Positions 24,096 to 58,000 are shown, counted from the first letter of the stretch. The stretch: 64,000 bases of DNA from Candidatus Omnitrophota bacterium (GCA_028715785.1 JAQURC010000004.1:92662-156661); one strand, 5' to 3'. Notes: generated from the letters alone by a model not told the origin. Translations and numbers: made by a program.

Positions 24096-24148
24096 GAAAA
24101 GTTTTTGACAATTTAAAGTTATACTCTAGAATAGCAGGTAGAATTTAT

Positions 24149-24229
24149 GCGCGGGTGGTGGAATGGCAGACACGCAAGCATGAGGGGCTTGTGCCGAAAG
24201 GCTTGGGGGTTCAACTCCCCCCTCGCGCA
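24149..24229 (+). tRNA. tRNA-Leu (anticodon GAG), long variable arm
   Basis: Acceptor GCGCGGG/CTCGCGC, anticodon stem CAAGC/GCTTG, loop ATGAGGG, T-arm GGGGG-TTCAACT-CCCCC, discriminator A. Confidence 0.8.
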
Positions 24230-24239
24230 TTAGAATCTA

Positions 24240-24291
24240 GGGGACGGTTCTATTTTTCTCATATTAAATTCAGAAAAATAGAACCGTCCCC
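24240..24291. terminator. Perfect 20-bp-arm hairpin (bidirectional terminator-like) between tRNA-Leu and the convergent response-regulator gene; member of a repeated hairpin family (second copy at 52821-52873)
   Basis: GGGGACGGTTCTATTTTTCT-catattaaattc-AGAAAAATAGAACCGTCCCC. Confidence 0.7.
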
Positions 24292-24296
24292 ATGTT

Positions 24297-25232
24297 TTAT
24301 GCTTTTTCCTGCCGCTTGTCTTTGACGTAGTTGCTTTTTTCCATGCTCTTGGCAAGCTTCTTTAACTCCGCGCCAATCTCACCGATCTGGGCCACATGCG
24401 AGATCTCGCGCATTTCATTGGTTACCACGCCGATAGATATCGACAGGAGCGGGATTTTGTGGATCTTGCTTTGGCGGTCATAGCCGATGATAAAGCCGTT
24501 CTCCCGGTCTTCCTGATTGTAAAATGACGGAGAGATTTGGTCAAAGTCATGGATTATCTTTTCGCAGATTTTATTTGCGTAATCCGGAGTGGTTATAACC
24601 ACAAAGTCATCGCCTCCGATGTGCCCGACAAAATCATCGGGCCTGCCCCATTCTTTGATCGCCCCCAGCAGTATGCGGGCAGTTTCCCGGATTACATTAT
24701 CTCCGTGTTCAAATCCGTATTTGTCATTGTAGGCTTTGAATTTATCCAAATCCGCGTAGCAGACCGCAAACTGTTTTTTACTTTCGATGCATTTGGAAAG
24801 CTCATTAAGGATGGCCACGTTTCCGGGCAGCCGGGTAAGCGGGTTTGCTTCCAGGTCTCTTTGCGTGCGCCGTAAGACCATGCGTATCCTTGCCAGGAGT
24901 TCTTTGGGCTCAAAAGGCTTGACCACATAATCGTCGGCTCCGGCGTCAATGCCGCCGATCTTGTCGCTGACCTCCCCTTTGCCGGTGACCATAATTACCG
25001 GCAGATGCTGCAATAGCAAATCTTTTTTAACTAAGTTGCACACCTGGCGCCCGTCCATTTTAGGCATTTTGTAATCCAGGAGCGCTAAGTCCAGAGGCTT
25101 GGAGCGGATTATCTCTAAGGCCTCTTGGCCGTTTACGGCCTCAATAATTTCGTAATTTTCTTCGGAAAGAGTAAGCTTAAGAATATCTCTTATATCCGGG
25201 TCATCATCAGCAACAAGTATTTTTATGCTCAT
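24297..25232 (-). CDS. Response regulator, REC + GGDEF-type diguanylate cyclase domain (GGDDF variant)
   Basis: MSIKILVADDDPDIRD…D…K REC domain. GGDEF-domain body with signature HIGGDDFVV. Start at MSIKIL is chosen over the longer ORF-track start. Confidence 0.8.
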   Translation of the reverse strand: MSIKILVADDDPDIRDILKLTLSEENYEIIEAVNGQEALEIIRSKPLDLALLDYKMPKMDGRQVCNLVKKDLLLQHLPVIMVTGKGEVSDKIGGIDAGADDYVVKPFEPKELLARIRMVLRRTQRDLEANPLTRLPGNVAILNELSKCIESKKQFAVCYADLDKFKAYNDKYGFEHGDNVIRETARILLGAIKEWGRPDDFVGHIGGDDFVVITTPDYANKICEKIIHDFDQISPSFYNQEDRENGFIIGYDRQSKIHKIPLLSISIGVVTNEMREISHVAQIGEIGAELKKLAKSMEKSNYVKDKRQEKA

Positions 25233-28355: not shown

Positions 28356-28375
28356 TTTCGGACTCCAACTTTTGA

Positions 28376-28428
28376 ATAGGGACAGCCATTTTTTATTTAA
28401 AATAAAAAATGGCTGTCCCTATTTATTT
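28376..28428 (+). terminator. Long perfect hairpin terminator
   Basis: TAGGGACAGCCATTTTTTATTT-aaa-ATAAAAAATGGCTGTCCCTATTTATTT. Confidence 0.7.
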
Positions 28429-28485
28429 GACAAATTCATAAATAAGCGTTATAGTTAATTTTATAATGTCCAATCTGGAGGATTC

Positions 28486-42796: not shown

Positions 42797-42917
42797 ATGT
42801 CCAATTACCTAATGAATGTTCAAAATAATGTCCAATCTGTATAAAATTATCCCTCTAGACAAAAGAATCCCTCATAACTCGTAACAATTTACCATTGAGA
42901 AGCATGCTGTGTCATTG

Positions 42918-42976
42918 CGAGGAGTTTTAAGATTGCTTCGCTCTCTTCGGTCGCTCGCAACGACACCGAGTGACCT
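42918..42976. repeat. Palindromic repeat element (GTGTCATTGCGAGGAG … CTCGCAACGACAC), family member A
   Basis: 13-bp inverted repeat with an internal GATTGCTTCG core. Related copies at 51613-51720 and 53045-53113. Confidence 0.6.
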
Positions 42977-43045
42977 CCAAAAGCCAGACTGTTACAAAGC
43001 AAGTTTAAATCTCTGGAAACGCTTTCTTTTGTGAGGGATATATAC

Positions 43046-43074
43046 TTGACAAGCACCCCCCTGCGTGGTAATCT
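43046..43074 (+). promoter_or_regulatory. Strong sigma70-like promoter for the pilin gene array
   Basis: TTGACA, 17 nt, TAATCT, about 60 nt upstream of the first pilin ATG. Confidence 0.55.
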
Positions 43075-43135
43075 TTAATTGTAAAATAAAAAGGCGTTTC
43101 TCGACGGTAATTGAAACCGGTTAAGGAGTTATTTT

Positions 43136-43345
43136 ATGGGGTTTATAATGGCTTTTAAAAAGGCCGATAAAAGCCATCTTGCGCCAAGAAAATTCTCCGA
43201 TAAAAAAGCGCAGTCAATATTTGAATACGTAATATTAACGGCCGTGGTAGTGGCAGTTGTTTTGATTTTTGGGCCGTATTTCGATGATATAAAAAAGTCC
43301 TGTACTAAAGCTTTTAATGATGCAGTCACGGAGATCGTAAAATGA
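43136..43345 (+). CDS. Flp-family type IVb pilin 1
   Basis: 69 aa. Class III signal-like KKAQSIFEYVILTAVVVAVVLIF. Confidence 0.7.
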   Translation: MGFIMAFKKADKSHLAPRKFSDKKAQSIFEYVILTAVVVAVVLIFGPYFDDIKKSCTKAFNDAVTEIVK

Positions 43346-43485
43346 GAAACAAAGCGCAAAGCACAATCGAATACGCCTTATTGATTGCCATTGTGGCGGC
43401 GGCATTTTTGGCAATGAACGTCTATATGCAGCGTTCGGTGCAGGCGAATTTTAACGTAATTGAAGAGCAGATAAATACGCCGTAA
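43342..43485 (+). CDS. Flp-family pilin 2 (47 aa; below the ORF-track size cutoff)
   Basis: MRNKAQSTIEYALLIAIVAAAFLAMNVYMQRSVQANFNVIEEQINTP*. ATG overlaps the previous stop (TAAAATGA). Confidence 0.65.
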   Translation: MRNKAQSTIEYALLIAIVAAAFLAMNVYMQRSVQANFNVIEEQINTP

Positions 43486-43505
43486 CAAAAAGGAGGGAAT
43501 TAAAT

Positions 43506-43673
43506 ATGCGTAACAGAAAGGGCCAGAGTATCTTGGAGTACGTAATTGTGTTAACCGTAATAGTTATTGCGGTTGCTCTAGCAGCTAATACTTTAATTAG
43601 ACCCGCGGTGAAACAGGGGTTAGACGATGCTGCTAAAACCATCAACAAAGCTACGGAACAATTGCCAAAATAA
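43506..43673 (+). CDS. Flp-family pilin 3 (55 aa; below the ORF-track cutoff)
   Basis: MRNRKGQSILEYVIVLTVIVIAVALAANTL… has the G/XXXXEY motif. GGAGGG SD. Confidence 0.65.
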   Translation: MRNRKGQSILEYVIVLTVIVIAVALAANTLIRPAVKQGLDDAAKTINKATEQLPK

Positions 43674-43701
43674 TTTAATTTTTAGGGGGAGGTGAACAAA
43701 G

Positions 43702-44052
43702 ATGCTAAACAAAAAGGGCCAGAATACAGCGGAATACGCGATTCTTATCGCCTTGATAATTGCAGCAGCGGTAGGGATGCAGACTTACGTTAAGAGGGGT
43801 TTGCAGGGAAGGGTAAAGGACGTCGTTGATCATACCGGCCAGGAAGCGGAAGTGGGCGGGGCCAATTTGGGCTTTAGCGGCGACCAATATGAGCCATATT
43901 ATGCGGAGTCCGACACAAAGGTAAAAAGCGAGAGGACCGCCGAAGAAACATTGGGTAAACGCGGCGAGATTACCCGCAGTCAGGTAAAAGAAGAAACCAA
44001 GGTTGACGTAGGGGGAGTTGAGAAAGTCCACGGCACAACCGGAGCTGATTAA
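43702..44052 (+). CDS. Flp-like pilin 4 with about 70-aa C-terminal extension
   Basis: MLNKKGQNTAEYAILIALIIAAAVGMQTYVKRGLQGR… SD GGAGGTGAACAAAGATG. Confidence 0.7.
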   Translation: MLNKKGQNTAEYAILIALIIAAAVGMQTYVKRGLQGRVKDVVDHTGQEAEVGGANLGFSGDQYEPYYAESDTKVKSERTAEETLGKRGEITRSQVKEETKVDVGGVEKVHGTTGAD

Positions 44053-44066
44053 GGAGGTGAACAAAG

Positions 44067-44414
44067 ATGTTTAACAAAAAGGGCCAGAGCACATTAGAAT
44101 ACGCGTTGATAACCGCAGTGATAATTGCCGGGCTTTTGCTGATGCAGCATTATATGAAGCATGGTTATGCCGGGAGATTAAAGTCGTCTACCGATGATAT
44201 CGGCGAACAGTATGACCCCAGCAAATACAGCGGAAAATTTAAAGTAACCAATAAGAGCTATACACAGCAGACTCTTAAGGACAAAGCCACAAGTCAGACC
44301 TATCTTGACCTGGGCGGTACCGAGTCCGGCGCCGGCAGGGTGCAGAAAAAAGAAAGCCTTGGCGATGAAAGGGTTGAAAGTTGGGGCCAGGATGAGAGCC
44401 TGTATAGTAAATAA
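44067..44414 (+). CDS. Flp-like pilin 5 with C-terminal extension
   Basis: MFNKKGQSTLEYALITAVIIAGLLLMQHYMKHGYAGR… SD and leader nearly identical to pilin 4. Confidence 0.7.
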   Translation: MFNKKGQSTLEYALITAVIIAGLLLMQHYMKHGYAGRLKSSTDDIGEQYDPSKYSGKFKVTNKSYTQQTLKDKATSQTYLDLGGTESGAGRVQKKESLGDERVESWGQDESLYSK

Positions 44415-44424
44415 AATAACGGCA

Positions 44425-44754
44425 ATGCGCCGGGCGCAAAGCGTGGCTGAATATAGCATTTGTCTGGCATTGGTTTTAGCCGCGCTTTTGGGCATGCAGA
44501 TCTATGTAAAAAGGGGACTGCAGGGCAGATACAAAGAAGCGGTGGACCACGCGGCTAAACAGGCCGCAAGTGCGGCTCAATTGACTACAAGCCCTAAACA
44601 ATATGAGCCATACTATGTCCAGGACAAATTTACAGTTAATCAATCTAAGATAGTCAGTGAAGATATAGGGCATAAAGGCCAAACAACCCGGGATATCCTT
44701 GAGGATAAGGTAGGTATTGAGCAGGGTAGTAAAGCGATAAGGGATGTACAATAA
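44425..44754 (+). CDS. Flp-like pilin 6 with C-terminal extension
   Basis: MRRAQSVAEYSICLALVLAALLGMQIYVKRGLQGR… The internal ATG at 44425 is preferred to the ORF-track start 44305, which overlaps pilin 5. Confidence 0.6.
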   Translation: MRRAQSVAEYSICLALVLAALLGMQIYVKRGLQGRYKEAVDHAAKQAASAAQLTTSPKQYEPYYVQDKFTVNQSKIVSEDIGHKGQTTRDILEDKVGIEQGSKAIRDVQ

Positions 44755-45922
44755 AATGAAAATGCGCAAAACAGGCCAGAGCATAAATGAATATGTGTTG
44801 GTAATCGTCCTGGTTACCTTGGCCGGGATAGGTATGCAGAATTATATTAAGCGGGGCATACAGGGTATAGTGAAGACCTCTGCCGATACGCTGGCTGGTG
44901 AAAAGGGGGATACGGTTGTGTATTCGGGCAGCGACAAGAGTATTTTAACCCGCTATGATCAAGCCGGCAATTTACAGTGGAACCCGGTCGCGGTATCATA
45001 CGAGAGCAGGCTTAGCGGAGGTTTTTTCGTAGCAGAGAAGACCGGCAACCAAGTCCAGTATATTCATTATCCCGATACATCCGATCTTAATAATAAAATA
45101 ATCATCGGCGGCCAGGACCAGGCAAGCGGTGATTTTACCAGCTATGACTGGGAAGGTTACGTAGACGCGGTTTATGATAAAGACGGAAAATTAATAAAGA
45201 AATTTACTCCTCAAGAGGCAAGGGATAATTATTCTAAATATGACATAGTATTATTAAGTTCCGCGGCGGCCAAATCCATGGTTCAAAATGGAGTAGTTGA
45301 GCGAGGACTAATTGAATTTGGATATAAGGACCCTTTAAAACCACTAACGTTTAATACCCCCACCCCCAGAAAAATCACTGTGAAGACGTATTCAAAGTAT
45401 AGCGGCCCGAAAAGTTTAGCGTTAGCGGATTGGCATCCGGCCATGACAGCGTATAAAGAAAAAATGGAAGAAGATAAGATCGGGGGGTTTATTCAAACAG
45501 AAATAAAAGGCAGTATGGTTTATTACTACACCTTTACTACCAACCCTAAAGATAGAGTACTTATCGGCGGAGAGGATACCCGCACAGGTGATTTTACAGG
45601 ATTTGACCCGGATGGTTTTCCTGTATCGACCGTAGATGGCAAACTCAACGTGCTTAGGACATATAGCGGTTATCTAACTGACCCGGAAACAGAAGAAATT
45701 GTGGGCGTAACCGGCAGCGACGGCAAAATTTATGGGCAGCACCAAATAGTAACAATAAGCCCTGCTCTTCAAACTACCGGTCCGGCAACAGTTGCTATTC
45801 CGATGAGGACAAAGACCATAGACAATGATACGACTCAGGTTACAGGCGCTTGGGAGGCAACTTATAAATTAGGTACGGATATCTATAAACCGAAGGGCAA
45901 TACGCCCCCAATAAAAAAATAA
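44744..45922 (+). CDS. Flp-like N-terminus fused to about 350-aa C-terminal domain (pilin-like adhesin/minor pilin 7)
   Basis: MKMRKTGQSINEYVLVIVLVTLAGIGMQNYIKRGIQG… then a large Gly/Thr/Tyr-rich globular region. Start may be 44756. Confidence 0.65.
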   Translation: MYNKMKMRKTGQSINEYVLVIVLVTLAGIGMQNYIKRGIQGIVKTSADTLAGEKGDTVVYSGSDKSILTRYDQAGNLQWNPVAVSYESRLSGGFFVAEKTGNQVQYIHYPDTSDLNNKIIIGGQDQASGDFTSYDWEGYVDAVYDKDGKLIKKFTPQEARDNYSKYDIVLLSSAAAKSMVQNGVVERGLIEFGYKDPLKPLTFNTPTPRKITVKTYSKYSGPKSLALADWHPAMTAYKEKMEEDKIGGFIQTEIKGSMVYYYTFTTNPKDRVLIGGEDTRTGDFTGFDPDGFPVSTVDGKLNVLRTYSGYLTDPETEEIVGVTGSDGKIYGQHQIVTISPALQTTGPATVAIPMRTKTIDNDTTQVTGAWEATYKLGTDIYKPKGNTPPIKK

Positions 45923-45924
45923 TT

Positions 45925-46314
45925 ATGTTACTACAAATGAATAAAAAATATAGATTAGGCAGACCAAACGCGCAATCGACACTGGAATACGCCATCGTGG
46001 TTGCTTGCATAGTAGCGGCGCTTATAGGGATGCAGTTTTACGTAAGGCGGGGAATCCAGGGAAGGCTAAGAGCGGCAGGGGATGAGATCGGCGAGCAGTA
46101 TACTCCACTTAACGTGGAATCAAAAATTACTACAGAAACAACTTCAAATACGACAATAAGCCAGAGCCTGGTCCCCTTAAAAAAGGACGGTAACCCTATA
46201 TTTGACCAGTATGGTTTACCTGTGTATGGAATGAAAACAGAAGCGGGTATTGATGAAACTACCTCCAAAAGCGGAAAAGAAACATTAGGGGAGTTTGAAA
46301 ATGGTTTATTTTAA
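45925..46314 (+). CDS. Flp-like pilin 8 with C-terminal extension
   Basis: …RPNAQSTLEYAIVVACIVAALIGMQFYVRRGIQGR…. Confidence 0.65.
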   Translation: MLLQMNKKYRLGRPNAQSTLEYAIVVACIVAALIGMQFYVRRGIQGRLRAAGDEIGEQYTPLNVESKITTETTSNTTISQSLVPLKKDGNPIFDQYGLPVYGMKTEAGIDETTSKSGKETLGEFENGLF

Positions 46315-47332
46315 TAAAAAAGCGCAAAGTTTAACCGAGTTATCTGCTTTTGGCTCGGTACTTTTATTGGCGTTGTCTTTTCTTATAAGTTATGGGATGC
46401 GTTATAATTACCAGCAGGATATACAGATGCGCGCTTTTCGCACGGCCCTGGCTGAGGCCTATAACGTTACGCGGCCCGATGCCTCAGCTTCGGTTGTGCT
46501 GCTTAATGATAAGCATGTACCCGATCCCCGCGATATGTTTGGTGTAGGTAATATTGTTCCGGTGCAAGCCGAAGCCGAAGTAATCTGGGGCAACACTCTG
46601 CAGGATAAATATACCGACCTCACAGATAGATCACGTTTGCCCCGGAAGAAATATGTGGTTAACGGCAAAGAATACGAATATAGGACTGCAGGCTTTGGTT
46701 TCATTACCAATGCTGTTAAGATCGACGGTAGTGCTGCCAATCCATTTTACGTAATGCTTCCTAATAACAATGAACCACAGCTTGTGACTTGGGATAAGCT
46801 GCGTTGTTATCAACCCACCGGAGATTTACCTAAACAAGCAATGATTTTGCTGAATCCCGAAGCAGCTGATGCCGACAAACAAAAAGAAATAATCACTGAA
46901 GTTTATTTAAAGCGGGGAGAAAAATTGTATGTAAAGTATCAGGTTATCGGAGTAAGGACTGATCCTCCTACCGCTTCTGATGGAGCCTCGATTGACCGGT
47001 TGGATTTATTAAGCCCGGATTCAGGCGAGATTAATCCCAATTATACTCAGTTAAACAATGATGTTGATAATGATGGTATTCCGGATGTGACTCCCAATAA
47101 TCTCCAAGGGCTATTGTTTAATGATGAGCAGAATATCAGGCGCAGCGGCACGCTTACAATAGAAGAAACTCCCCAAAAAACTATAAGCACCAGCACATAT
47201 AGTTTTAGCAATAAAGCCGGGAAACCTACGACGATTACGCATAAAATTAGAGATAATTCCGGGGTGATTATGCCTGTCAGCTCTCCTTTTGATGGAAGGA
47301 CCAGGATATCCGAATGGACAACGCCAAAGTAA
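46295..47332 (+). CDS. TadE/TadF-like pseudopilin with large C-terminal domain
   Basis: 345 aa. KKAQSLTELSAFGSVLLLALSFLISYG is a TadE-like N-terminus. Confidence 0.6.
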   Translation: MKMVYFNKKAQSLTELSAFGSVLLLALSFLISYGMRYNYQQDIQMRAFRTALAEAYNVTRPDASASVVLLNDKHVPDPRDMFGVGNIVPVQAEAEVIWGNTLQDKYTDLTDRSRLPRKKYVVNGKEYEYRTAGFGFITNAVKIDGSAANPFYVMLPNNNEPQLVTWDKLRCYQPTGDLPKQAMILLNPEAADADKQKEIITEVYLKRGEKLYVKYQVIGVRTDPPTASDGASIDRLDLLSPDSGEINPNYTQLNNDVDNDGIPDVTPNNLQGLLFNDEQNIRRSGTLTIEETPQKTISTSTYSFSNKAGKPTTITHKIRDNSGVIMPVSSPFDGRTRISEWTTPK

Positions 47333-47571
47333 AGGCGCAAGTTGCGCTTGAATTTGTCACTGCCTTTATTTGCACCATTCTTTTATTGGTGCTGACTACG
47401 CAGCTTCTTGTCTGGTTTGGCAATAATATCGTTAACCGGCAGAAGGCATATGAAAGCACGCGGAGCATGGCACTTACCCTGGATACATCTGAACCCGTTG
47501 TCCCCAAAAAAGATTTTTATACGCCTTCTAAATTAAAGATATTCGGAAATACGGAAGAGTTACCAAAATAA
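47314..47571 (+). CDS. TadE-like pseudopilin (small)
   Basis: 85 aa. AQVALEFVTAFICTILLLVLTTQLLVWF. Confidence 0.55.
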   Translation: MDNAKVKAQVALEFVTAFICTILLLVLTTQLLVWFGNNIVNRQKAYESTRSMALTLDTSEPVVPKKDFYTPSKLKIFGNTEELPK

Positions 47572-47576
47572 TTAAA

Positions 47577-47786
47577 ATGAGAAAAAAAGGGATGAGCGTG
47601 GTAGAATATAGCTTGCTGGTTGCCATAGTAATCGCCGCGCTTCTGGCAATGCAGGTTTATGTTAAGCGGGCGGTAAGCGGACGCTGGAAGGAAGCAGGGG
47701 ATGTGTTTGGCTTTGGCAGGCAGACCTCCAAGACGATCCTAAGAACCCAGCCGCCCACAGGCGGCGGCGAATTACCAGGAATGTAA
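47577..47786 (+). CDS. Flp-family pilin 11
   Basis: 69 aa. MRKKGMSVVEYSLLVAIVIAALLAMQVYVKRAVSGR. Confidence 0.65.
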   Translation: MRKKGMSVVEYSLLVAIVIAALLAMQVYVKRAVSGRWKEAGDVFGFGRQTSKTILRTQPPTGGGELPGM

Positions 47787-47787
47787 A

Positions 47788-48633
47788 ATGAGAATATTAA
47801 TTATCTTGCTTATTTTCGGCTCAATCGCTGGTTTGGCCTACGAATTAATTCCTTTATTCTTAGAACGTTATTCTCAGCTCCAGAGTAAGCGTATGGAAAA
47901 GGCCTCGAAAGAGCTGCACCAGATGTTTATCTTTACCGAGAAACACCGCTTACTGCCGATGTTTACGATCACGCCTCTGGTGCTGGGCACGTTGGGATTC
48001 ATTATCCTGCGTAACCCGCTGGGCGCTTTAATCGGCGCGGGGCTTGGTTTGTTATTGCCCCGGATATGGATTAAAAATATGGGCCGAAAAAGACAGAATG
48101 ATTTCGGCAGGCAGCTGGTAGACGCGCTTATGCTCCTTTCCAGTTCTCTTAGGGCCGGGATGAGTTTGCCCCAGGCATTCGAGGTGCTTACCGAAGAGAT
48201 GCCCGCGCCGATCAGCGATGAGTTCGCCCTGGTGATCAAAGAAAATAAAATGGGCGTAACCTTAGAGGATTGCCTGGCGCATCTTAAACAAAGAATCCCT
48301 CTGGATGATTTGGAATTATTGACTACCGCTATAAGCATCTCCCGGGAAACCGGAGGGGATTTGACTGAAATTTTCGCAAACCTGGTGCATACTATCAGGG
48401 AAAAAAGAAAATTAGATGACCGTGTAAGGGTATTGACCGTGCAGGGCCGGCTGCAGGGGGCGATTATGGGCCTTTTGCCGATAGCGTTCGGAGTCTTCAT
48501 TTACTTCATTAATCCGAGCAATTTTGACGTAATGCTTAATGACCGGTTCGGCCAGATGCTGCTTGTCTGGGCGGTAATTTCCGAAGTAATCGGAGTAATC
48601 CTTATCCGGAAATTAAGCAAGGTGGATATATAA
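47788..48633 (+). CDS. tadB: Flp pilus assembly protein TadB (T2SS F-family membrane protein)
   Basis: 281 aa polytopic membrane protein with a T2SSF-domain pattern. Follows the pilin array. Confidence 0.8.
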   Translation: MRILIILLIFGSIAGLAYELIPLFLERYSQLQSKRMEKASKELHQMFIFTEKHRLLPMFTITPLVLGTLGFIILRNPLGALIGAGLGLLLPRIWIKNMGRKRQNDFGRQLVDALMLLSSSLRAGMSLPQAFEVLTEEMPAPISDEFALVIKENKMGVTLEDCLAHLKQRIPLDDLELLTTAISISRETGGDLTEIFANLVHTIREKRKLDDRVRVLTVQGRLQGAIMGLLPIAFGVFIYFINPSNFDVMLNDRFGQMLLVWAVISEVIGVILIRKLSKVDI

Positions 48634-48635
48634 AT

Positions 48636-49517
48636 ATGGAACTTGTGCTGATTATTTTATTGCTGTTTACCAGCATCGGATTTGTGGCCTACCATGTTTC
48701 TAACCGCAAGCTGGTCGAAGAAGTGCATCTGCCTTCCGAGATTACCGGTGAATCGGGATCCAAGCTTAAGGCGTTTAATCTTAAGAATATTTTAAGCGGG
48801 CCGGCCGGCTTTATCGAGCGCTTGTTCGGTAAATCAAGCTTCTCTTTGCCGGCCAGCGATTTGCATAAACGGCTGGCTTCTTCAAATAAAATAATGAGCC
48901 CTACCCAATTTATGGTATTAAAATTTTTCCTGGCGCTGGCTGTGCCGTTGGCTGCCCTTATTGCTTTTCAGGCAAAACCCGTGGTCCTGATCTTCTGCGC
49001 CGGCATCGGTTTTATTTTACCGGACATCTGGCTGAATAACCTTATCAAGAAAAGGCGCGCCTTGATTGTAAAAGACCTGCCTTTGGTAATTGATCTTTTG
49101 AATATCTGCGTGGGCGCGGGCCTTGATTTTATGGTGGCGGTTAACCGCGTGATCCAGGAGTTCAGGCCCTGCGCGCTTATTGAGGAAATGAAGATAATGA
49201 CCAATGAAATACAAATGGGCATCTCCCGGCGTGACGCGTTAAAGAATATGTCTGCCCGCATAAATAACCCCGAGATCAGCTCGTTTGTGAGGACGCTTTT
49301 ACAGGCAGACAGGATCGGCACGCCGATCAGCGAGGCATTGAAGATGCAATCAGAGGAGATCCGGTTGCGCTGGTTCCAAAAAGGCGAAGAGATGGCTTTG
49401 AAAGCCCCGATTAAGCTTTTATTCCCCTTGTTGATATTCATCCTTCCTGTAGTTTTAATCATTGTGGCCGGCCCAATTTTGATCCAGTTCACCCGCGGCG
49501 GCATGGTTAAATTCTAA
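48636..49517 (+). CDS. tadC: Flp pilus assembly protein TadC
   Basis: 293 aa. Paralogous T2SSF-domain membrane protein directly after tadB. Confidence 0.8.
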   Translation: MELVLIILLLFTSIGFVAYHVSNRKLVEEVHLPSEITGESGSKLKAFNLKNILSGPAGFIERLFGKSSFSLPASDLHKRLASSNKIMSPTQFMVLKFFLALAVPLAALIAFQAKPVVLIFCAGIGFILPDIWLNNLIKKRRALIVKDLPLVIDLLNICVGAGLDFMVAVNRVIQEFRPCALIEEMKIMTNEIQMGISRRDALKNMSARINNPEISSFVRTLLQADRIGTPISEALKMQSEEIRLRWFQKGEEMALKAPIKLLFPLLIFILPVVLIIVAGPILIQFTRGGMVKF

Positions 49518-49547
49518 ATTAAATAAAATTTAAATAGAAAAGGCAGG

Positions 49548-49585
49548 GCCGGATCTAATAGATTCGGCCCTTTTATTTTAGTTAG
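49548..49585 (+). terminator. Rho-independent terminator of the Tad operon
   Basis: AGGGCCGGATCTAATAGATTCGGCCCTTTTATTTT. Confidence 0.7.
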
Positions 49586-49629
49586 ATTTCATCCCTTGTT
49601 GCGTCTATTGCGATAGAAAGGGGGTTTAG

Positions 49630-50136
49630 ATGAGCGCAAAAGAGATTTCGGCAGAGGTAGTGGCAATGAAGATTTTGTTGGTACGCGACAAGAAGGTAAT
49701 GTTGGATTCAGATTTGGCAAGCCTTTATGGAGTAGAAACAAAAAATTTGAATTTGCAGGTCAAGAGGAATATAAGGCGTTTTCCGTACGATTTCATGTTT
49801 CAATTAACCCAGGGAGAAACTTTGAGGTTGCAGAATGCAACCTCAAAGCGTGGTGGCCGCAGGTATTTGCCCTATGTTTTTACTGAACAAGGTGTAGCAA
49901 TGCTTTCTACGGTTTTGAATTCCGAACGAGCAATCCAGGTTAATATCGCTATTATGCGGGCGTTCGTAAAGTTACGAGAGGTTTTGTTAACGCATAAGGA
50001 TTTAGCGCAGAAACTTGAGGAATTGGAACGGAAATACCAATTGCATGAAATAGACATTCAGGTAATATTTGAGGCGATCAAGAAGTTGCTTGAGCCGCCG
50101 GATGAGCCTCCAAAGCCGAGATTTGGGATGAATTGA
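49630..50136 (+). CDS. ORF6N-domain protein (KilA-N/antirepressor-associated family), copy 1
   Basis: 168 aa. …KVMLDSDLASLYGVETKNLNLQVKRNIRRFPYDFMFQLT…RRYLPYVFTEQGVAMLSTVLNSERAIQVNIAIMRAFVKLRE matches the ORF6N pattern. Confidence 0.7.
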   Translation: MSAKEISAEVVAMKILLVRDKKVMLDSDLASLYGVETKNLNLQVKRNIRRFPYDFMFQLTQGETLRLQNATSKRGGRRYLPYVFTEQGVAMLSTVLNSERAIQVNIAIMRAFVKLREVLLTHKDLAQKLEELERKYQLHEIDIQVIFEAIKKLLEPPDEPPKPRFGMN

Positions 50137-50167
50137 GATTGAATGCGTATTGATAAGCCTCAATTAT

Positions 50168-50479
50168 TTACCTATAAACTTCTCTTCTATGATCAATTCT
50201 AATTATGCCGATATATTTTTCTGTCTTTGAAAAGAAATATATTACCCTGTAATCACCAATGCGATATGAATAGCAGCCTTTGAATTCTGCCTGTAAGGGT
50301 TTACCTATAAGGGGGCCGCTGGCAATGTACTCTAATGCTGAAGCAATCCTTTCTTTAAGTTTTTTATCTTTGAGTTTTTGGAATTGACCTGAGGAGATAC
50401 TCGAAAATCTGATAGGATAGCCCATATTAATTTCTTTGCAGCCTGCCAACCACTTCTTTAAAGCTTTTAGTTTTACCAA
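50168..50479 (-). CDS. RelE/ParE-family type II toxin
   Basis: …GCYSYRIGDYRVIYFFSKTEKYIGIIRIDHRREVY is a typical RelE/ParE C-terminus. The likely real start is at MGYPIRF (about 50425), directly after the antitoxin stop. Confidence 0.7.
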   Translation of the reverse strand: MVKLKALKKWLAGCKEINMGYPIRFSSISSGQFQKLKDKKLKERIASALEYIASGPLIGKPLQAEFKGCYSYRIGDYRVIYFFSKTEKYIGIIRIDHRREVYR

Positions 50480-50696
50480 GACTTAATTCTCTTTTTGCCT
50501 TTCTAATTTCTCTCAAAGCTTTTTTATCGGACATTATTTCTAAAGTTTCAAGCCATCCTTCAAATTCATCAGCATTCATTACTACTGCCGCTGGTTTTCC
50601 CTGCTTAGTTATTATAAATCTTTCAAGCCTTTTGTCAGAATCTCTAATAAGCTCTAAAAAATGCGCCTTTGCTTCGGTAACAGTCAATGTAGTCAT
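50427..50696 (-). CDS. Phd/YefM-family antitoxin
   Basis: 89 aa. MTTLTVTEAKAHFLELI…KQGKPAAVVMNADEFEGWLETLEIMSD. Confidence 0.75.
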   Translation of the reverse strand: MTTLTVTEAKAHFLELIRDSDKRLERFIITKQGKPAAVVMNADEFEGWLETLEIMSDKKALREIRKAKRELSLGKTKSFKEVVGRLQRN

Positions 50697-50943
50697 ATCT
50701 TTACCTCCCTAAATATTTCTCTTTTTCCATTTAAAGTATAAATCATAATTCTAAAGTTGTCAAGGACAAAATGACTATTTTTATGACTATAAAGGATAGA
50801 TACTTCTCGGGGTCCCTTCGCCTAATCCCGCATGGATACGATCCTGTTCCCCGATTGGCTCGGAAACAGGGTCGTAATTAGTTTCCTTTTTATAGTTAGA
50901 TTCCATCTCCTGTTACGTCAGTTGCGATAGAAAGGGGGTTTAG

Positions 50944-51456
50944 ATGAGCGCAAAAGAGATTTCGGCAGAGGTAGTGGCAACGAAGATTTTGTTGGTGAGA
51001 GGTAGGAAGGTGATGTTGGATAGGGATTTGGCGGAGTTGTATGGAGTAAAGACGCGGGATTTGAATAAAGCAGTCGCAAGGAACAGGAGTCGTTTCCCGG
51101 ATGACTTTATGTACCAGCTTACAAGAGAAGAGGTTGCAATCTTGAAGTTCCAATTTGGAACATCAAGTTGGGGTGGAACGAGAAAACCTCCGAATGTTTT
51201 TACTGAGCAGGGCGTTGCAATGCTTTCTGGTGTATTGCATTCTAAGCGAGCAGTGCAGGTTAATATCGCTATTATGCGGGCATTTGTGAAATCACGTGAA
51301 TTGTTATTAACACATAAAGAACTGGCCCAGAAGCTTGAAGAATTAGAGCGTAAGTATCAATTACACGAAACGGATATCCAGGTGATATTCGAGGCGATCA
51401 AGAAGTTGCTTGAGCCGCCGGATGAGCCTCCTAGGCCGCGGTTTGGGATGAATTGA
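50944..51456 (+). CDS. ORF6N-domain protein, copy 2 (paralog of 49630-50136)
   Basis: 170 aa. About 80% identical to copy 1, including an identical first 11 residues and a near-identical 5' leader. Confidence 0.7.
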   Translation: MSAKEISAEVVATKILLVRGRKVMLDRDLAELYGVKTRDLNKAVARNRSRFPDDFMYQLTREEVAILKFQFGTSSWGGTRKPPNVFTEQGVAMLSGVLHSKRAVQVNIAIMRAFVKSRELLLTHKELAQKLEELERKYQLHETDIQVIFEAIKKLLEPPDEPPRPRFGMN

Positions 51457-51612
51457 GATTGAATCGTCTCTATTTCCCGATTGGCTCGGAAACTGTTTCC
51501 AACCTAATCGGGAAATAGGGTCGTATTCTGCTCCTATTTATTATGTCCAGTCTGGATTATAAAGACATATTATTGTCCATTCTGAATTAATATTTGTCCA
51601 ATCAGGCTGTCC

Positions 51613-51720
51613 AGTGTCATTGCGAAGGAGCGAAGTGTCTCCAGTGTCATTGCGAGGCGCCAGAGGCACCGAAGCAATCTCGGTTTAGATTGCTTCGTCA
51701 CTACGCTCCTCGCAATGACG
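51613..51720. repeat. Palindromic repeat element, family member B (two tandem left arms GTGTCATTGCGA(A/G)G…, GAAGCAATCTCGG core, right arm CTCCTCGCAATGACGC)
   Basis: Read directly. The + strand ORF 51594-51851 overlapping it is probably spurious. Confidence 0.6.
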
Positions 51721-51813
51721 CTTACTCGAAATACGCCCCTATTTCCCGATTGGCTCGGAAACAGGGCCGCATTTACCAAAAGAAAACGTTACCAAAAATA
51801 GCCGATTTTTTAC

Positions 51814-51842
51814 TTGACAGCGTCTATGCGGGGTGTTATATT
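51814..51842 (+). promoter_or_regulatory. Sigma70-like promoter upstream of the giant ORF
   Basis: TTGACA, 17 nt, TATATT, about 170 nt upstream of ATG 52011. Confidence 0.45.
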
Positions 51843-52010
51843 TGGGTGTAAGTTAAAAAGCCTTTTTTATTTGAAAACTTAATAAGAGATTTAAAAAACA
51901 TTTAATAATCCGGTAACCTTATGAAAAGAACCTTCATTAAAAAAATGAAAAGTCTTGGGGTAAGGGGAAATATTTATTTTTTATTTAGTACTATAGGTAA
52001 TAAGTAAAAG

Positions 52011-55000
52011 ATGAATACAAAACAGCCGCAGACAGAAAACAGTATCGAGCAACCGAAAAGTGAATTCAAGTCAAGTTTTAAAGCTTGGATCCGCGCGGTT
52101 GCTTTTGTTGTTATCGCGGTATTCCTGCCGGAGCAGGCGGCCCAGGCAATGGGCTATGATCCCACCACAATCTGGAACCATTCTTATTTTGTGAACCAGG
52201 GTAAAAACGGATTTTTAACTTATCTTGTCGCGGATAATATCAAACGTTCCCTGGATTCCCTGTCATACAAACAATTAAATCAGGTTCAACTGGATAAAAA
52301 TTTAGTAATTGAGACAGCCCCGCTTAAAGAATCAGAAACTATTGCGAAGGTCTCTGCGCCAATCAAGGGAGACCAAAGCAATTTTTTTGGTAAAATCGGC
52401 AATGCCCTACAAAGCGGCAGTGTGTCAATTTTCCGCCTTTTAACAAGCGGCCTGAAGAAAGATTCCTCACCCGATCAATCCCTCCCCACCACAAGGCAAG
52501 GAACCGCCTCCAGCCAGAAACCGTCACTTTATTTGACCGGATCAGTGGTAAAACAAATCAACCTGTGGCTTAAGGATCCAAAGACACAGGTTGATAACAA
52601 CTGCGGTATCAACGCGCTGAATGCTTTATTTGTCCAATCAGGAATTAAAGTAACCCGTGAGGAATTGGCAACCCGGGCGATTATGGTTGATTTTCTTTCA
52701 GGCAATTTAAGGGAGTTTAAAGGCGAGCTTGCCTTATCCCTTTTTGCCCTGCAAAAAACCGCCGCATCCTTTGGCCTTAAAACCGCTTTAGTCAAAATTC
52801 CCGCTTCGGCATTGAATCAAGGGGACGGTTCTGTTTTTCTAACACCAAACTCAGGAAAAATAGAACCGTCCCCTTTATTTCAAGTGGTTCCCTTCATCAC
52901 CTATCTTTTATCCGAGCATTTCGTCTTAGTCACCCGCGTAACCGAAGACAAGGTTTATTACAAAGAAGACAAAGAAGAAGCCAATATGCCCAAGGAGATT
53001 TTTCTCAAGGGCTTTACCGGCAATTGCCTGGTGCTTGCGGATTCTGTGTCATTGCGAGGGAGCGAAGCGACCCCCGTGTCATTGCGAGGAGCCGCAGGCG
53101 ACGAAGCAATCTCGTTCCTCTCCGACCAAGAAGCATTGCAAATCAGCGGAAAAGAGAGTTTAACCGATAGGTATAATTCATTGAAGTCATATGTCAGCAA
53201 CACCGCCAAATCCACCATCTCCACCGCCAAATCCTATGTTTCCACAGCCCGCAGCACCTATACTACCGCAAGCAATGTTTACAACGCAGTCAAGTCTGTA
53301 ACCGGTATTTCCGCAAGCTCTATTGTGACAAGAAGCTCCATCCCCAGCAATCCTCTAAGCGCCATCAGCGTTCCTGTAACCACATATAACTATCTGGCTA
53401 GCCCCTCCACCAAAGGAAATTTAGGCAAAAGCTATGGCGCTGCAAATACCCTGCAAACCGATTTCGCTTTAACCGTACCCAAGCGTGCATATGATTTTAC
53501 CGGCTGGGTAGATACTGTCAGCGGCCTTAATTCAAACCTGGGAACCAAGCTTTATCAGAGCTCCAGTCTAGTCAGATCCATCTCCGATGCTTATTCTGGG
53601 GTCAAAGGAAGAACCGAGTCCTCTTTAAAGCAAACCTACGGAATAGGGACTTATAATAATTTTATTAAACCATCAGAGGAATTTATTGCGGATAATGCAA
53701 TTATTACGGTTGCTACCTTAGGCGCTGGTTCAGCTGCCGGCCTTGCGGGAAGTACAGCCGCTCGGCTGGGCTCTGTAAGCCGCATTGCCGAACCTGTCAT
53801 TTCTCGCCTGCCTCAAATTAGCCGCTACACCGGCTCAATTTCTCGTTATCTACCAAACGGAGTTAATAGGATGCTTGGAAGCACCGAAGGAAGCCTCAAT
53901 ATTGCTTCCCATATTCCTAATTTGGAGCGGCTATCCAATACCGCCAAATGGGCGGGGACAAAAATATCTGGCGGCGCTAAATGGCTGACTAAACTTACAT
54001 CTCCGCGGCTACCACAGGTAAGAAATGCTATTAGAACAGAAATAAATATTATAAATAATGCACAGGGCTTAGCTCGTACATATAGACAAGTGACCTTTAT
54101 TCCAAGAATGGGCTGGAAGGCCACAGGCTATATCGGTAATTTTGTTAATATTCGCCCGCTAACTACTTACGGTTCGCTCGTTGGCATAGGGATGTATGAG
54201 TCATATGGCAAAGATATAAAAAGGGATCCATATCGCGGTGAAGCCGACCTTTTATGGTTAGGAAGCACTTGGCATCATTTCGCCCTTAATGATAAAAAAT
54301 CCGAAACATTTAAAACAAATTTAGAACAAAAAGGATTAACTTCAGATATTTATCTATTTGAAGAGGGTCGCCGCAAAGAGGAGGAAAATCCAGGGCTCTT
54401 AGGTCAGCTTTATGCAGCACCTTATCATTTTGGAAGCGGGTTGATTGGTTTCACTAAATTTGTTCCTTCTGCCGCGGATAAGGTATATTCAAGAGGTCGA
54501 AACGAAGGCATTAAAGCCGGCGCGCAAGAAGCATTTAGCACCGGAGTTGGCGTGGGTTCATTCTTGGCAGATTATTATGTTGCCACTCCGTATAATATAG
54601 TTTCCTCAACAATTAATTACGCATTCGGGTCGCAGATCAAAGGCATTAAGATCGGCGCCTTCCAGGAACTGTTATCTCAAAATCAAACTTTAAAACCTTG
54701 GGTATCTGACGGAGCTGTTCTTGCTCCGGAAGCAAAAGCCAAAGATTATTATCCTAATTTTGGTTTCTTTATCGGCTCAGCTCCTTTGATGCGCGGCCCG
54801 ATACAGAAAAGTATGCATGATAGAAGCGCCATAAAGCCGGAAAAAACTTCTACAGGCGCTCTTAGCCGCACCCACAAAATTATTATGGAGAAGAGCGACG
54901 CTACGTTTAATTTTCTTCTTGTTCCGGTTAACGCGGTTGCCGGCCCGATGTTTGGAGCGTTGCAATATTCCAAGGCGCGAGGAACCAATCTGCTAAACGG

Positions 55001-58000
55001 CGCGTTAATCCGCTCCGGTTTTAACCCCAAAGAATTCGGTATCAGGCCGGAAGCAAAAGCATCGTTTGGCGATACTGTTTTTGTAACGCCTTGGAAAACG
55101 CAAGTAGCAGGAGGAATTATAGGTTTGCCTCTTGAGATTCCCGGGGTTAAAAAACGCGCGCAGTTGTATTTCCTGCCCGGCGGTATTCTTTCTCCGCTAG
55201 CTCCCGATCAAATGGCTCCACTCAGAGCAATAGCCAAAGAATACGGTGCTGATTATAACCGCTTAAGGAAGGCAGGAGCTACGCCTGATAGAATCCTTAA
55301 GATGCAGGATGGCAAGATAATTCCTCGAGGTCCGGCAACAGGAATAGAGGTAACTCCGGAATTAAAAACAATAGCTTCCTATGAAAAGGCAGTAACCGGC
55401 AGGTTAACTGATAGGGATGCGAAAGGGGGCAACTGGAAAGCAATTAGGGAATTATCCGATGCCGCCCTTATACAAAAAGCCACAGAGAATTCAGGAGTAA
55501 AATCCCAATTTGCTAAATTAGAAATATCTATGCGCGGTTTGTCGGGCAATTCCCAACTCATAAAAGATTATCTGGGGAGAGTAGATAGCAGTATAGATGT
55601 TAGAAAGATAGCCGAACTCGATAAAGCTTACAGTAAAATTCAAGCCCGCAATGAGATTTTCCAGCCGATAGATTACGCTTTAGCCAAATCCGGTAAAGAA
55701 ATAATAAATAGACAAAGAGATTTTGAATTAGCAGGATTAAAACAGAGTATCGAAGAGACCAAAACAGCCCAGATTGCTGAAGTTAAAGCCGGTGCCGAAG
55801 TAAAAAAGGCGCAGTGGGGATATACGATAAATCCGACTTCAGGCAATCTGAATAAAATAGCAAAATCGGAAGTAAATCTGGCACGAATATCCCTTCCTTT
55901 GGAGATAGCCCGAAAGATAAACGAAGGGAAAAAAGAATTGAATGGGGTAACTCAAAAAATAGATGAAGTGGAAAAACAGATTCGTTTAAATGAACGTAAT
56001 TTCCTTCGTAAGCCAGATCCCGAAAATTCACAAAAGAGGAGAGAATTATCCGCAAAGAAAGCGGAATTAATGGCTGATCAAACAAGGTTGAGCAGCCTGG
56101 TTGAAGTTGAAGGAATAAAACACCAATTGGTCTCCCTGGTAATTGCCGGGAAGTTTGGAACTAAAGACCATAATCAGGCTGCTGAAGAGTTTAATATGAA
56201 AGCGGATTTAAGCAACGGTGTTGAGGGGATTTTAAGTAGCCAACTTAAGCACGATATGCTGAGAAGATTTGAACGTATTAAAACAAAAGGAGATAGTAGC
56301 AGTTTCAACCGGGCTTGGAATAAAATAAATCCAAATTCAGAATACAATCGGGCAATAAAAACTTTAAATGCTATTAAAGACATAGATATCAGTAAAATAG
56401 ATGGAGCTATTAAAGATACGAAAAATGAAATACTAAAATCAGCGGCATTAAATGATAATTCAAGGCAGGAACTGGCCAGAAAATTTTATGAAGATGGTAT
56501 TACTGCTGAAACGATTAAAGCAAAAGGTTTTTGGGAAAATTGGCACGAACTCGGACAGGGTTTAAGTGGGATTAACCAAGAGAGAATGAATGACGGGATG
56601 CAGAAATTGTTTAAACTGGAGGTGCTTAAGCTCGACCAGAAAGAATTGGAAGGAAAAACTAACCTCGGGTTTAGGATTGATTTCGATGAAGGAAAAAAAC
56701 TTAAAGCGGATACAGATGAGCGGAAGATCTTTGATACCCTGAGAAAATTGGACGAGAAAGAAAACCAGGGCATAAAGTATGAATTTCAAAAATCAGTTGG
56801 TGATTTAATAAAAGGCTGGAAGTGGAAAGAAACTTTCAAAGACCAAAATAAAGTTACCGATAGCAAGAATGAGGTAGCTAGCATATTGGCTAATCATTTA
56901 TCAATATTAAAGAATCCCGATTCAATGAATAATCCGGAATTTAGGGGCCAAGATAATTCACTTAAAGATTCCAGAGGAAAAACTGAACTGGGCATATTCT
57001 TGGCTTTAACCACTTTTAAACACTCCGGCCGCGAAGATCTTGGTTTATTTGCTACTCCTAATGAGTTAGAACGGGTATATAAGAGGGTATTGGAGGATTA
57101 TCTGGGAGGGGAAAAAATCAGTATTGGAGAAGGAATAGATGGGGTCAAAGTTACGATTGGCGGAGCAGATTATACCTTTATAAAAATTACCGATAAAGAT
57201 ATTCAATCTTCTTACTTAGCTGATAATTTAGGCAAATTAAATGATATTTTTAAAGACAAGATCATCCTCACTGATATCTCTACTTTACAGAATCTTAATA
57301 TGCAAAAGATCGTTCCTTCGCAAGGGCCAGTGGAAAAGCAATTGGCTAAGCGGCTGGCTGAGATTATTTATGACCGGGCAGTTATAATCGATGAAATCCA
57401 TCAGGTTTCTCAATCCCCTTATCATATAGTTGGTTTTGACGGCAAGGCTCTTGCAGAGTTTTTAAAACCTGCCGAGTATGAAAAATATGTTGATGTTGCT
57501 GAAAAAATAGACAGAAAATTCCAAGAATTGGCTAACCTTGAAGAAGTTACAAATAATAAGGGTGAGCCAGTCACAACAGTCAAAGGCTATGGTAATTTAG
57601 GGGATAGATTAATTAAAATGGAATATGTTGATGAATATAAAGGTCTTACGACAGCAGGAGAAAATGAATTCAAGAGATTATTAGGCGATAAATTTGTAAC
57701 GCAAGCAGAGAATAAAGATTTCAGTATCGAACGGCTTTTGGTAAATTCTTTTGTCAGGAACCTATCTATGAAGGAAGAGCAGGAGGGTGGTTTTGGCCTG
57801 AAGAAAAACGAGAGTCAGGAAGACGAGGCCCATCCGGTGCATTTTGGAAAGATTAATGAGAAAATGCAGTGGTCAACTCCGGAAGAGGCAATTTCGCGCT
57901 GGGTTATCGGTTTTCGGATGAAAGGTGTCAAGACGAAAGATAAAGATAATAATATTATTGATATTCCAGTAGGGGAAATTATCAGTAAAATAAAAATAAG

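Follow-up and report, generated by a model that had tools for sequence, protein, structure and literature searches.

A dispersed REP-like hairpin repeat flanking genes for Ssn-type GIY-YIG nucleases, and its probable in-frame insertion into a giant gene of an Omnitrophota bacterium

A 64,000-nucleotide stretch of DNA from a Candidatus Omnitrophota bacterium (GCA_028715785.1 JAQURC010000004.1:92662-156661; hereafter, the window) carries three copies, A, B and C, of a palindromic repeat family that we designate F1, the first two being intergenic and the third lying within the open reading frame (ORF) of a giant gene. Taken together, the results make it highly likely that F1 is a dispersed hairpin repeat of the repetitive extragenic palindromic (REP) kind which is associated with an Ssn-type nuclease, that its copies in the window are lineage-specific, and that one fragment of it has become fixed in the giant gene, at a disordered linker of the product. 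An earlier note on this DNA had called the family "MITE/REP-like" (MITE, miniature inverted-repeat transposable element); the second half of that label was borne out, but the first was wrong, given the general lack of target-site duplications and the association with a gene for a GIY-YIG nuclease of the Ssn type.

F1 is defined by two boxes, YGTCATTGCGAGG and CGAAGCAATC, with a GNA-loop mini-hairpin between them. When one genome per species was scanned with the 21-base pattern GTCATTGCGAGG-N6-20-GAAGCAATC (596 Gb in all), at least 120 loci were found in reference genomes from at least 14 phyla, compared with approximately 4 chance matches expected by our own arithmetic. Among the matches listed were Chloroflexota, Alpha-, Gamma- and Deltaproteobacteria, Bacteroidota, Ignavibacteriota, Patescibacteria, Planctomycetota, Omnitrophota, Armatimonadota, Gemmatimonadota, Verrucomicrobiota, Latescibacterota and Helicobacter, and the same pattern was present at 120 or more loci in predicted viral contigs. 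The earlier note had envisaged that no further copies might exist, a possibility which the reference-genome loci outside the window dispose of. Within the window, the exact 12-mer GTCATTGCGAGG occurs five times, whereas about 0.008 occurrences would be expected by chance in 64 kb (own calculation). A literature search with the raw repeat sequence returned only unrelated PCR primers; a search of the window against Rfam at the gathering threshold yielded only tRNAs, and at a permissive threshold F1 again had no match, the only hits being sub-threshold matches of generic miRNA hairpins to F2, a second repeat family dealt with below.

Each half of F1 forms a hairpin, the stem of which (ATTGC/GCAAT) covaries. 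Covariation was assessed on repeats from loci chosen by protein and not by repeat sequence, by comparing the 5-mers after GTC with those before the terminal C. Compensated stems were observed, namely ACTGC/GCAGT in 11 units, GTTGC/GCAAC in 5 and ATCGC/GCGAT in 3, and 34 of 76 variant units were fully paired, against a mean of 17.7 and a maximum of 24 after shuffling. The spacer between the boxes is variable in sequence and in length (6–19 nt) and tends to form a mini-hairpin with a GAA, GCA or GTA loop (e.g., GCGAAGC, GCCCGAAGGGC or GACCGAAGGTC), with stems longer than those in shuffled spacers. The base before GTC was C or T in 128 of 134 units, a C followed the stem in nearly all units from the protein-selected loci, and a CAG tail was present in 47 of the 134. 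The four intact units of the window comply with both the oriented GTC tag and the C directly 3' of the stem, and the window copies end in CTCG. Beyond the element ends, nothing was conserved other than a pyrimidine before GTC, and no direct repeat that could represent a target-site duplication was detected at the ends of 131 out of 146 complete hairpins. With regard to the arrangement of the halves, a right half lay within 80 nt of a left half in 86 of 134 cases, with a median loop of 24 nt.

Because of this stem covariation, the dimeric arrangement and the missing duplications, we regard F1 as a head-to-head dimer of oriented hairpin units and not as a MITE with terminal inverted repeats and target-site duplications. 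Each unit, of approximately 36–40 nt, is a hairpin. It comprises a YGTC tag, a base stem of 5 bp (ATTGC/GCAAT), shoulders rich in G and A (GAGG...CGAA) and a distal mini-hairpin that varies and mostly has a GNA triloop; the stem is followed by a C. Two such units placed head-to-head give rise to the long palindrome.

The identity of the partner gene was provided by loci L029 (from a planctomycetote) and L085, in which an ORF of 95–96 aa is placed exactly between F1 halves situated about 310 nt apart. The only Pfam match of this ORF is to GIY-YIG (PF01541), and the length of the protein is 95–98 aa. In the reverse test, 80 metagenomic loci encoding relatives of the F1-nested protein were collected, 73 of which had enough flanking sequence to be evaluated. 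All 73 harbored an F1 box at most 150 nt from the GIY-YIG gene; boxes were present on both sides of the gene in 62, and 44 had a full left half upstream together with a full right half downstream. The median distance of the F1 units from the protein match was 26 nt on the upstream side and 10 nt on the downstream side. A gene inside a dimer was the layout seen most often (19 loci), and next came a gene between two dimers (10 loci). The nuclease family is large, as 7,999 of the 8,000 scored candidates had E values of 1e-5 or lower, and the best hits listed were mostly 95–99 aa long.

The Neisseria Transformation Sequence (NTS; CGTCATTCCCGCGMAVGCGGGAATCYRG) and related hairpins termed Ssn-related motifs (SRMs) flank ssnA, which encodes a 94-aa single-domain GIY-YIG protein (Chenal 2025, PMC11893778). 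The F1-associated nuclease was 43.8% identical over 89 aa (E 1.9e-26) to a 94-aa ORF of N. gonorrhoeae that is flanked by nine canonical NTS repeats. Its match to UPF0213 structures was weak, NCBIfam held no model for it, and a literature search combining GIY-YIG with palindromic repeats returned only fungal mitochondria. Further loci were found in Rhizobium, where a 53% identical relative is flanked by canonical SRMs, and in Planktothrix, where a 57% identical relative is flanked by an F1-like unit with the compensated stem ATTCT/AGAAT. F1, hence, flanks and is cognate to one subclade of nuclease genes, whose small single-domain GIY-YIG products are homologous to SsnA. Two further observations were made on these loci. 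On plasmid p1 of Planktothrix agardhii, the Ssn-family gene with F1-like flanking repeats (18847-19131) is placed inside a defence island, between a gene for a type IIL MmeI restriction-modification enzyme and the DISARM helicase gene drmA. In addition, the PLSDB "plasmid" records NZ_CP119140.1 and NZ_CP119142.1, the source of the NTS-flanked ssnA, are mislabelled 2.17-Mb chromosomes of N. gonorrhoeae.

The features of the window that are relevant to this work are compiled in Table 1. The repeat family reported in the earlier note is real, and its three loci were recovered with slight corrections of the coordinates: copies B and C were displaced by at most 1 nt, while copy A, although present, had been placed at 42918-42976, i.e., about 8–10 nt off.

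Table 1. Positions of F1 and F2 repeats and of giant-gene features, counted from the first nucleotide of the window.
Feature	Position	Strand	Description
F1 copy A	42910-42966	none	Internally deleted head-to-head dimer, between the DUF192 gene (end 42796) and the Flp pilin operon
F1 copy A, left part	42910-42924		Left tag and box 1 only, followed by a 5-nt loop
F1 copy A, full unit	42930-42966	minus	AGATTGCTTCG...GCTCGCAACGACA
F1 copy B, truncated unit	51614-51643	+	GTGTCATTGCGAAGGAGCGAAGTGTCTCCA; tag, box 1 and spacer present, box 2 missing
F1 copy B, complete head-to-head dimer	51644-51720	none	Flanked by the conserved TGTCCA motifs on one side and the promoter of the giant gene on the other
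F1 copy B, plus-strand unit	51645-51680	+	TGTC-ATTGC-GAGG-spacer-CGAA-GCAAT-CT
F1 copy B, loop	51681-51686		
F1 copy B, minus-strand unit	51687-51720	minus	CGTC tag
F1 copy C, truncated unit	53046-53075	+	Inside the giant ORF, codons 346-355, SVSLRGSEAT
F1 copy C, full sense unit	53076-53114	+	PVSLRGAAGDEAIS; inside the giant ORF, right arm absent
Giant ORF	52011-64000	+	ATG at 52011, in-frame stop at 52005; at least 3,996 codons, runs off the window
Giant-gene sigma-70-type promoter	51814-51842	+	TTGACA-17-TATATT, 11/12; surrounding sequence conserved upstream of homologue P0005
TGTCCANTCTR pair	51544-51584	+	Motifs 30 nt apart, upstream of the giant gene
F2 intragenic hairpin	52815-52879	none	Intact 22-bp hairpin, in-frame in the C39 domain of the giant gene, aa 269-290
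F2 intergenic hairpin	24234-24297	none	Starts 4 nt after tRNA-Leu(GAG) (24148-24230); z -9.0

The three copies differ in anatomy, and only copy B is a complete palindrome. As an RNA, copy B folded into a very stable structure (minimum free energy -45.9 kcal/mol, z -7.8, with 0 of 200 shuffles as stable), as befits a complete palindrome. Copy A (inverted repeats I3/I4), a derivative in which the inner portion of the left arm is missing, folded weakly (-23.9 kcal/mol, z -2.0), and copy C, a half-element fragment made of left-arm units only, one truncated and one full, did not fold (z +0.36). The spacer of the full unit in copy C, AGCCGCAGGCGA, holds a mini-hairpin (GCC-GCA-GGC). A possible right-arm remnant just after copy C (TCCTC...GAC) was considered and set aside as too short to claim.

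In the repeat search, 51614-51682 of copy B and 53046-53114 of copy C were 86% identical over 69 nt (repeat family D11), that is 59 of 69 positions by direct count, in agreement with the figure of about 85% put forward in the earlier note. Both copies also have in common a composite structure, in which a 30-nt truncated unit is followed by a full unit. This composite was seen in only 3 of 134 cases elsewhere and is too rare to be the signature of a mobilisation mechanism, an idea that was dropped; because of that rarity, however, copies B and C can be taken to share descent, and copy C most likely arose by local duplication of, or recombination with, a B-like copy.

In the giant ORF, the first nucleotide of copy C is in codon phase 0, and the copy reads SVSLRGSEATPVSLRGAAGDEAIS, in line with the claim that it preserves the reading frame. 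A Peptidase_C39 match (PF03412, E 4.5e-6) spans aa 238-345 of the protein, equivalent to nt 52722-53045, and copy C begins at aa 346, exactly adjoining the domain. Eight homologues of the N-terminus were retrieved, mostly from Omnitrophota metagenome-assembled genomes (MAGs), with 26–44% identity. In the alignment, the segment SVSLRGSEATPVSLRGAAGDEAIS was present in the window protein only and absent from all eight, whereby the check proposed in the earlier note, on whether homologues share the peptide, came out in favor of an insertion. In an AlphaFold model, most of the C39 core was predicted with pLDDT (per-residue model confidence) values of 70–89, and values below 50 fell on aa 272–285 and 348–364, which correspond to the F2 and copy C inserts, respectively; the model suggests, at low confidence, that the copy C site is a disordered linker just after the C39 domain. 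With regard to stop codons, the F1 consensus is free of them in four of the six frames and copy C in five of the six.

The giant gene is not the only coding sequence to harbor F1 in-frame. Counting only lower-GC cases with Pfam confirmation, in which domains span or flank the repeat, F1 was located in-frame in at least five genes elsewhere, encoding GMP synthase (GuaA), a PfkB kinase, KsgA, an ATP-dependent DNA ligase and FGAM synthase (PurL). Long stop-free frames around F1 in GC-rich genomes (e.g., L045, L063, L016 and L065) arise by chance and were not taken as proof of an intragenic site, and a candidate in L108 was left uncounted, as it had no Pfam domain. These Pfam-verified genes belong to other phyla, and in-frame tolerance is therefore a recurring property of the F1 family, as it is for the Rickettsia palindromic elements (RPEs). 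Consequently, the proposal that REP-like elements can insert into coding sequence without breaking the frame stands, based on the absence from homologues, the low-confidence linker, the open frames and the other genes just mentioned.

Two side observations concern the same protein family. Firstly, a 21-nt tandem repeat in at least four copies, 91–100% identical, is found at 62969-63074 of the giant ORF and encodes repeats of the KQEAGAA type. Secondly, homologue P0005 has a private in-frame insert of 8 aa, GLSPKGTVP, at a different site in its C39 domain (L204 1310-1345), encoded by the imperfect palindrome GGGACTCTCCCC-GAA-GGGGACTGTCCC.

How F1 could work may be sketched from the published biochemistry of SsnA. 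Binding by this enzyme is confined to one strand of its repeat and to single-stranded DNA (ssDNA), and the cut is made a few nucleotides upstream, the GTC tag being important for cutting and the C after the stem for binding (PMC11893778). By analogy, we infer that Ssn cuts F1: the unit would be recognised only as ssDNA and in one orientation, and cleavage would take place a few nucleotides upstream of the tag. The gene-between-repeats layout resembles that of REP/RAYT systems. The window copies would be lineage-specific acquisitions, of which A and B may have landed in permissive intergenic DNA, and copy C would be a left-arm fragment, related by descent to copy B 1.4 kb away, that came to lie in-frame at the boundary after the C39 domain, where it would be tolerated because that frame holds no stop codon and the site is a predicted disordered linker. 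The unrelated hairpin F2 would have done likewise inside the C39 domain. If F1 affects the pilus or giant-gene loci at all, that effect is probably neutral or incidental.

Several results weigh against this interpretation. No ssn gene was found in the 64-kb window, either by tblastn or by a profile search (best E 2.3), and, among the loci listed, only 2 of 120 from genomes and 0 of 120 from viral contigs had one near F1, most copies being far from any. The published SRM pattern, HGTCWYN(0-2)YYVSBRHN(0-5)WNVSBRGN(0-2)RNCYNB, matched none of the 134 F1 units and nowhere in the window; the NTS control matched, and any match at all was present in 2 of the 80 F1-type ssn loci. Furthermore, the AlphaFold model was built from a nine-sequence alignment and has a mean pLDDT of 42, and the homologues of the giant gene, being merely 26–44% identical, do not allow the insertion boundaries or the route (transposition versus local duplication or gene conversion from copy B) to be resolved.

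Other explanations were nevertheless considerably less compatible with the data. One possibility is that F1 is a classical MITE, which descends from an insertion sequence, cannot move by itself and depends on a DDE transposase, supplied in trans, that acts on its terminal inverted repeats; in favor of this are the inverted terminal symmetry, the short length, the high copy number and the wide dispersal of F1. Yet the missing target-site duplications, together with the fact that the only gene consistently nested between the arms encodes a 95-aa GIY-YIG nuclease and not a transposase, largely refute this possibility, and covariation of the internal stem is not required of repeats bound by a transposase; we therefore hold it to be very improbable. 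Similarly, copy C could in principle be an ancestral coding motif of the giant protein (SLRG...DEAIS), from which the intergenic copies derive or which they merely resemble, as its frame is that of the ORF, which runs on for over 3,600 codons past it. This is refuted by the eight homologues without the segment and by the spread of the repeat, since copy C matches at the nucleotide level the consensus of at least 14 phyla and shares 86% identity with a copy that is non-coding and located at a distance of 1.4 kb, and we give it practically no credence. By contrast, it is conceivable, albeit unlikely, that the intergenic copies act as RNA, as stable 3' hairpins that block exonucleases or attenuate read-through, which would be compatible with the interpretation of F1 as a dispersed Ssn-associated repeat. 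In its favor, copy B forms the stable fold reported above, copies A and B are downstream of same-strand genes (DUF192 and ORF6N, respectively), and REPs are mostly downstream of coding regions and plausibly transcribed (Di Nocera 2013, PMC3733652). However, a terminator scan detected no intrinsic terminator (GC-rich stem plus T-run) at copies A and B, neither is followed by a U-tract, no Rfam family matched, copy A folds weakly, and the GNA-triloop mini-hairpins and strand-specific tag suggest recognition of ssDNA, in line with SsnA not binding RNA (PMC11893778).

A further alternative takes up the suggestion in the earlier note that F1 serves as a shared regulatory or recombination motif of the pilus and giant-protein loci; the copies would then be functional cis-elements, either regulatory or acting as recombination or transformation-control sites that mark surface-structure genes, like NTS in Neisseria. 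The Tad/Flp operon and the giant gene do have all three F1 loci around them, in a span of 10.2 kb; copies A and B are each about 80–95 nt upstream of a TTGACA promoter element; and in Neisseria the NTS, which modulate transformation, are clustered close to genes whose products are membrane or host-interaction proteins (PMC11893778). Nonetheless, three copies within 10 kb of the 64-kb window corresponded to p ~0.07 (own calculation), which is not significant alone, copy A is a deleted derivative, copy C is inside an ORF, and there is no evidence for an ssn gene or competence in this organism. In particular, neither F1 nor the local families F2 and F3 occurred in the syntenic Tad-to-giant-gene loci of three related Omnitrophota genomes (L204-L206). 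Because these loci lack any F1 box and still keep the giant-gene promoter and a pair of TGTCCANTCTR motifs, the proposed link is unsupported, and we consider a role as cis-element decidedly unlikely. TGTCCANTCTR pairs, with the motifs about 30 nt apart, are conserved in four Omnitrophota genomes, in each case upstream of the C39 giant gene (L204 319-390, L205 9205-9245, L206 9377-9417 and the window), and single copies are present in the window at 42829-42839, upstream of the Flp pilin promoter, and at 28467-28477. This motif is a plausible shared transcription-factor site and a better candidate than F1 for linking the two loci.

The order of these loci is conserved in Omnitrophota: a Flp/Tad pilus operon, with many small pilin genes followed by two T2SSF genes, precedes a variable island of toxin-antitoxin, abortive infection (Abi) or ORF6N modules, after which comes the giant gene with its N-terminal C39 domain (43136-49517 and 52011-64000 in the window; also in L205 and L206).

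The most far-reaching proposal is as follows. F1 and its GIY-YIG gene might constitute a self-propagating unit with a new class of Ssn specificity, which would move via ssDNA, spread nearly unchanged between phyla and actively seed in-frame peptides in proteins, among them essential enzymes and the giant surface protein. In this Omnitrophota lineage, the copies around the Tad/giant-gene locus would play the part that NTS and SsnA have in Neisseria and tune how DNA for surface proteins is recombined or taken up. We consider this proposal unlikely.

Besides F1, the window contains a second palindrome family, F2 (GGGGACGGTTCTNTTTTTC and its complement), unrelated to the first and overlooked in the earlier note. 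Its intragenic hairpin, with arms GGGGACGGTTCTGTTTTTC and GAAAAATAGAACCGTCCCC (repeat calls D9, I16 and I17), encodes NQGDGSVFLTPNSGKIEPSPLF and folds with -37.9 kcal/mol (z -9.0). The F2-encoded peptide NQGDGSVFLTPNSGK in the C39 domain was, like the copy C segment, absent from all eight homologues and present only in the window protein. Elsewhere F2 was essentially not found; a single match to a solo arm in viral contigs was in unrelated sequence and judged to be due to chance. A third local family, F3 (CCCTATTTCCCGATTGGCTCGGAAACAGGG), is represented at 50836-50880, 51462-51523 and 51731-51775, with the middle copy being a palindromic dimer (z -8.7). Each member of a duplicated pair of ORF6N-domain genes (49630-50136 and 50944-51456, 78–82% nucleotide identity) is followed by F3, the copies of which bracket copy B of F1. 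Additionally, a perfect 24-bp palindrome, AATAGGGACAGCCATTTTTTATTT / AAATAAAAAATGGCTGTCCCTATT, is situated at 28375-28423, about 290 nt downstream of a tRNA-Glu gene, and could represent a further REP-like element or else a terminator that works in both directions.

With respect to the window, the outcome is modest: the repeat would be selfish or neutral DNA that does not link the loci by regulation, and the giant gene has two tolerated inserts, which are peptides derived from hairpins and located in loops. Beyond it, the signature YGTCATTGCGAGG-N6-20-CGAAGCAATC is ready for use in searches and defines an Ssn-associated repeat class over many phyla which the published SRM pattern misses. F1 and its nuclease would also provide a new candidate pair of enzyme and site for programmable ssDNA cleavage. 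Moreover, the repeat explains very common spurious small ORFs in MAG annotation (SLRGAKRRSNL, VIASEAKQS, DCFASLAMT and LLRFARND), and RPE-style in-frame insertions extend well beyond Rickettsia, to housekeeping enzymes of bacteria of the candidate phyla radiation (CPR), Bacteroidota and Proteobacteria.

With regard to known systems, F1 resembles the RPEs in being a palindromic repeat that is found in-frame in functional genes and adds a peptide without destroying the protein, and the window case, in which eight of eight homologues are devoid of the segment, is an in-frame insertion absent from orthologues, as in RPEs. RPEs are approximately 100–150 bp long and not known outside Rickettsia, whereas F1 is shorter and spans many phyla, and its intragenic copy in the window is a half-element. 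In common with the REP/REPIN-RAYT systems, or REPtrons (Bertels & Rainey 2011, PMC3116915), F1 consists of short hairpin units, two of which in inverted orientation make up a larger hairpin; the repeats lie on both sides of one small nuclease gene, recognition of ssDNA hairpins is presumed, and target-site duplications are missing. It differs from them in its partner and tag, a GIY-YIG protein and YGTC as opposed to an HUH Y1 tyrosine transposase and GTAG, and in that REPIN sequences are lineage-specific and vertically inherited, while the F1 sequence is common to many phyla.

A closer likeness is observed with the REPs tagged by CGTC or TGTC, which have stems starting with AT, CCA tails and a mostly head-to-head dimeric arrangement; this class includes dRS3 of Neisseria and RPE-4 and RPE-6 of Rickettsia, and was concluded to have no dedicated transposase (Di Nocera 2013, PMC3733652). 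F1 shares with it the tag, the AT at the start of the stem, the predominance of head-to-head dimers (86 of 134 for F1), the lack of a transposase, a CCA-type tail in many copies (GCAAT-CCAG) and the location of some members inside genes, and both are present in Bradyrhizobium, sphingomonads, Micavibrio and Rickettsiales. The CGTC-REP families described there, however, have a stem of 8–9 bp, a loop of 4–5 nt and a short CCA tail, as compared to the longer F1 unit with its 5-bp base stem and interrupted extension. In these features F1 is set apart from them, although the Bradyrhizobium variants may include F1. With regard to the partner enzyme, none dedicated to the repeats was concluded in 2013, whereas F1 is accompanied by a GIY-YIG nuclease, as are the repeats studied by Chenal (2025).

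It is with these SRM and NTS repeats that the correspondence goes furthest. In both cases, hairpin units carry an oriented 5' tag, (C/T)GTC-AT, and have a C directly behind the stem (tail AATC-C/T), they flank single-domain GIY-YIG genes (~94–98 aa) on both sides, and the repeats far outnumber the genes. The differences reside in the core, which in F1 consists of a 5-bp base stem, G/A-rich shoulders and a GNA-loop mini-hairpin (~36–45 nt) and in NTS of a perfect 8-bp stem with a 4-nt loop (28 nt); in the near-invariance of the F1 sequence over at least 14 phyla; and in the rarity of intragenic NTS (2% in N. meningitidis), in contrast to the repeated in-frame presence of F1 in genes. From the sequence evidence, F1 thus appears to be a variant of the Ssn/SRM and CGTC-REP kind, with a homologous partner enzyme and a different core architecture that escapes the published SRM pattern.

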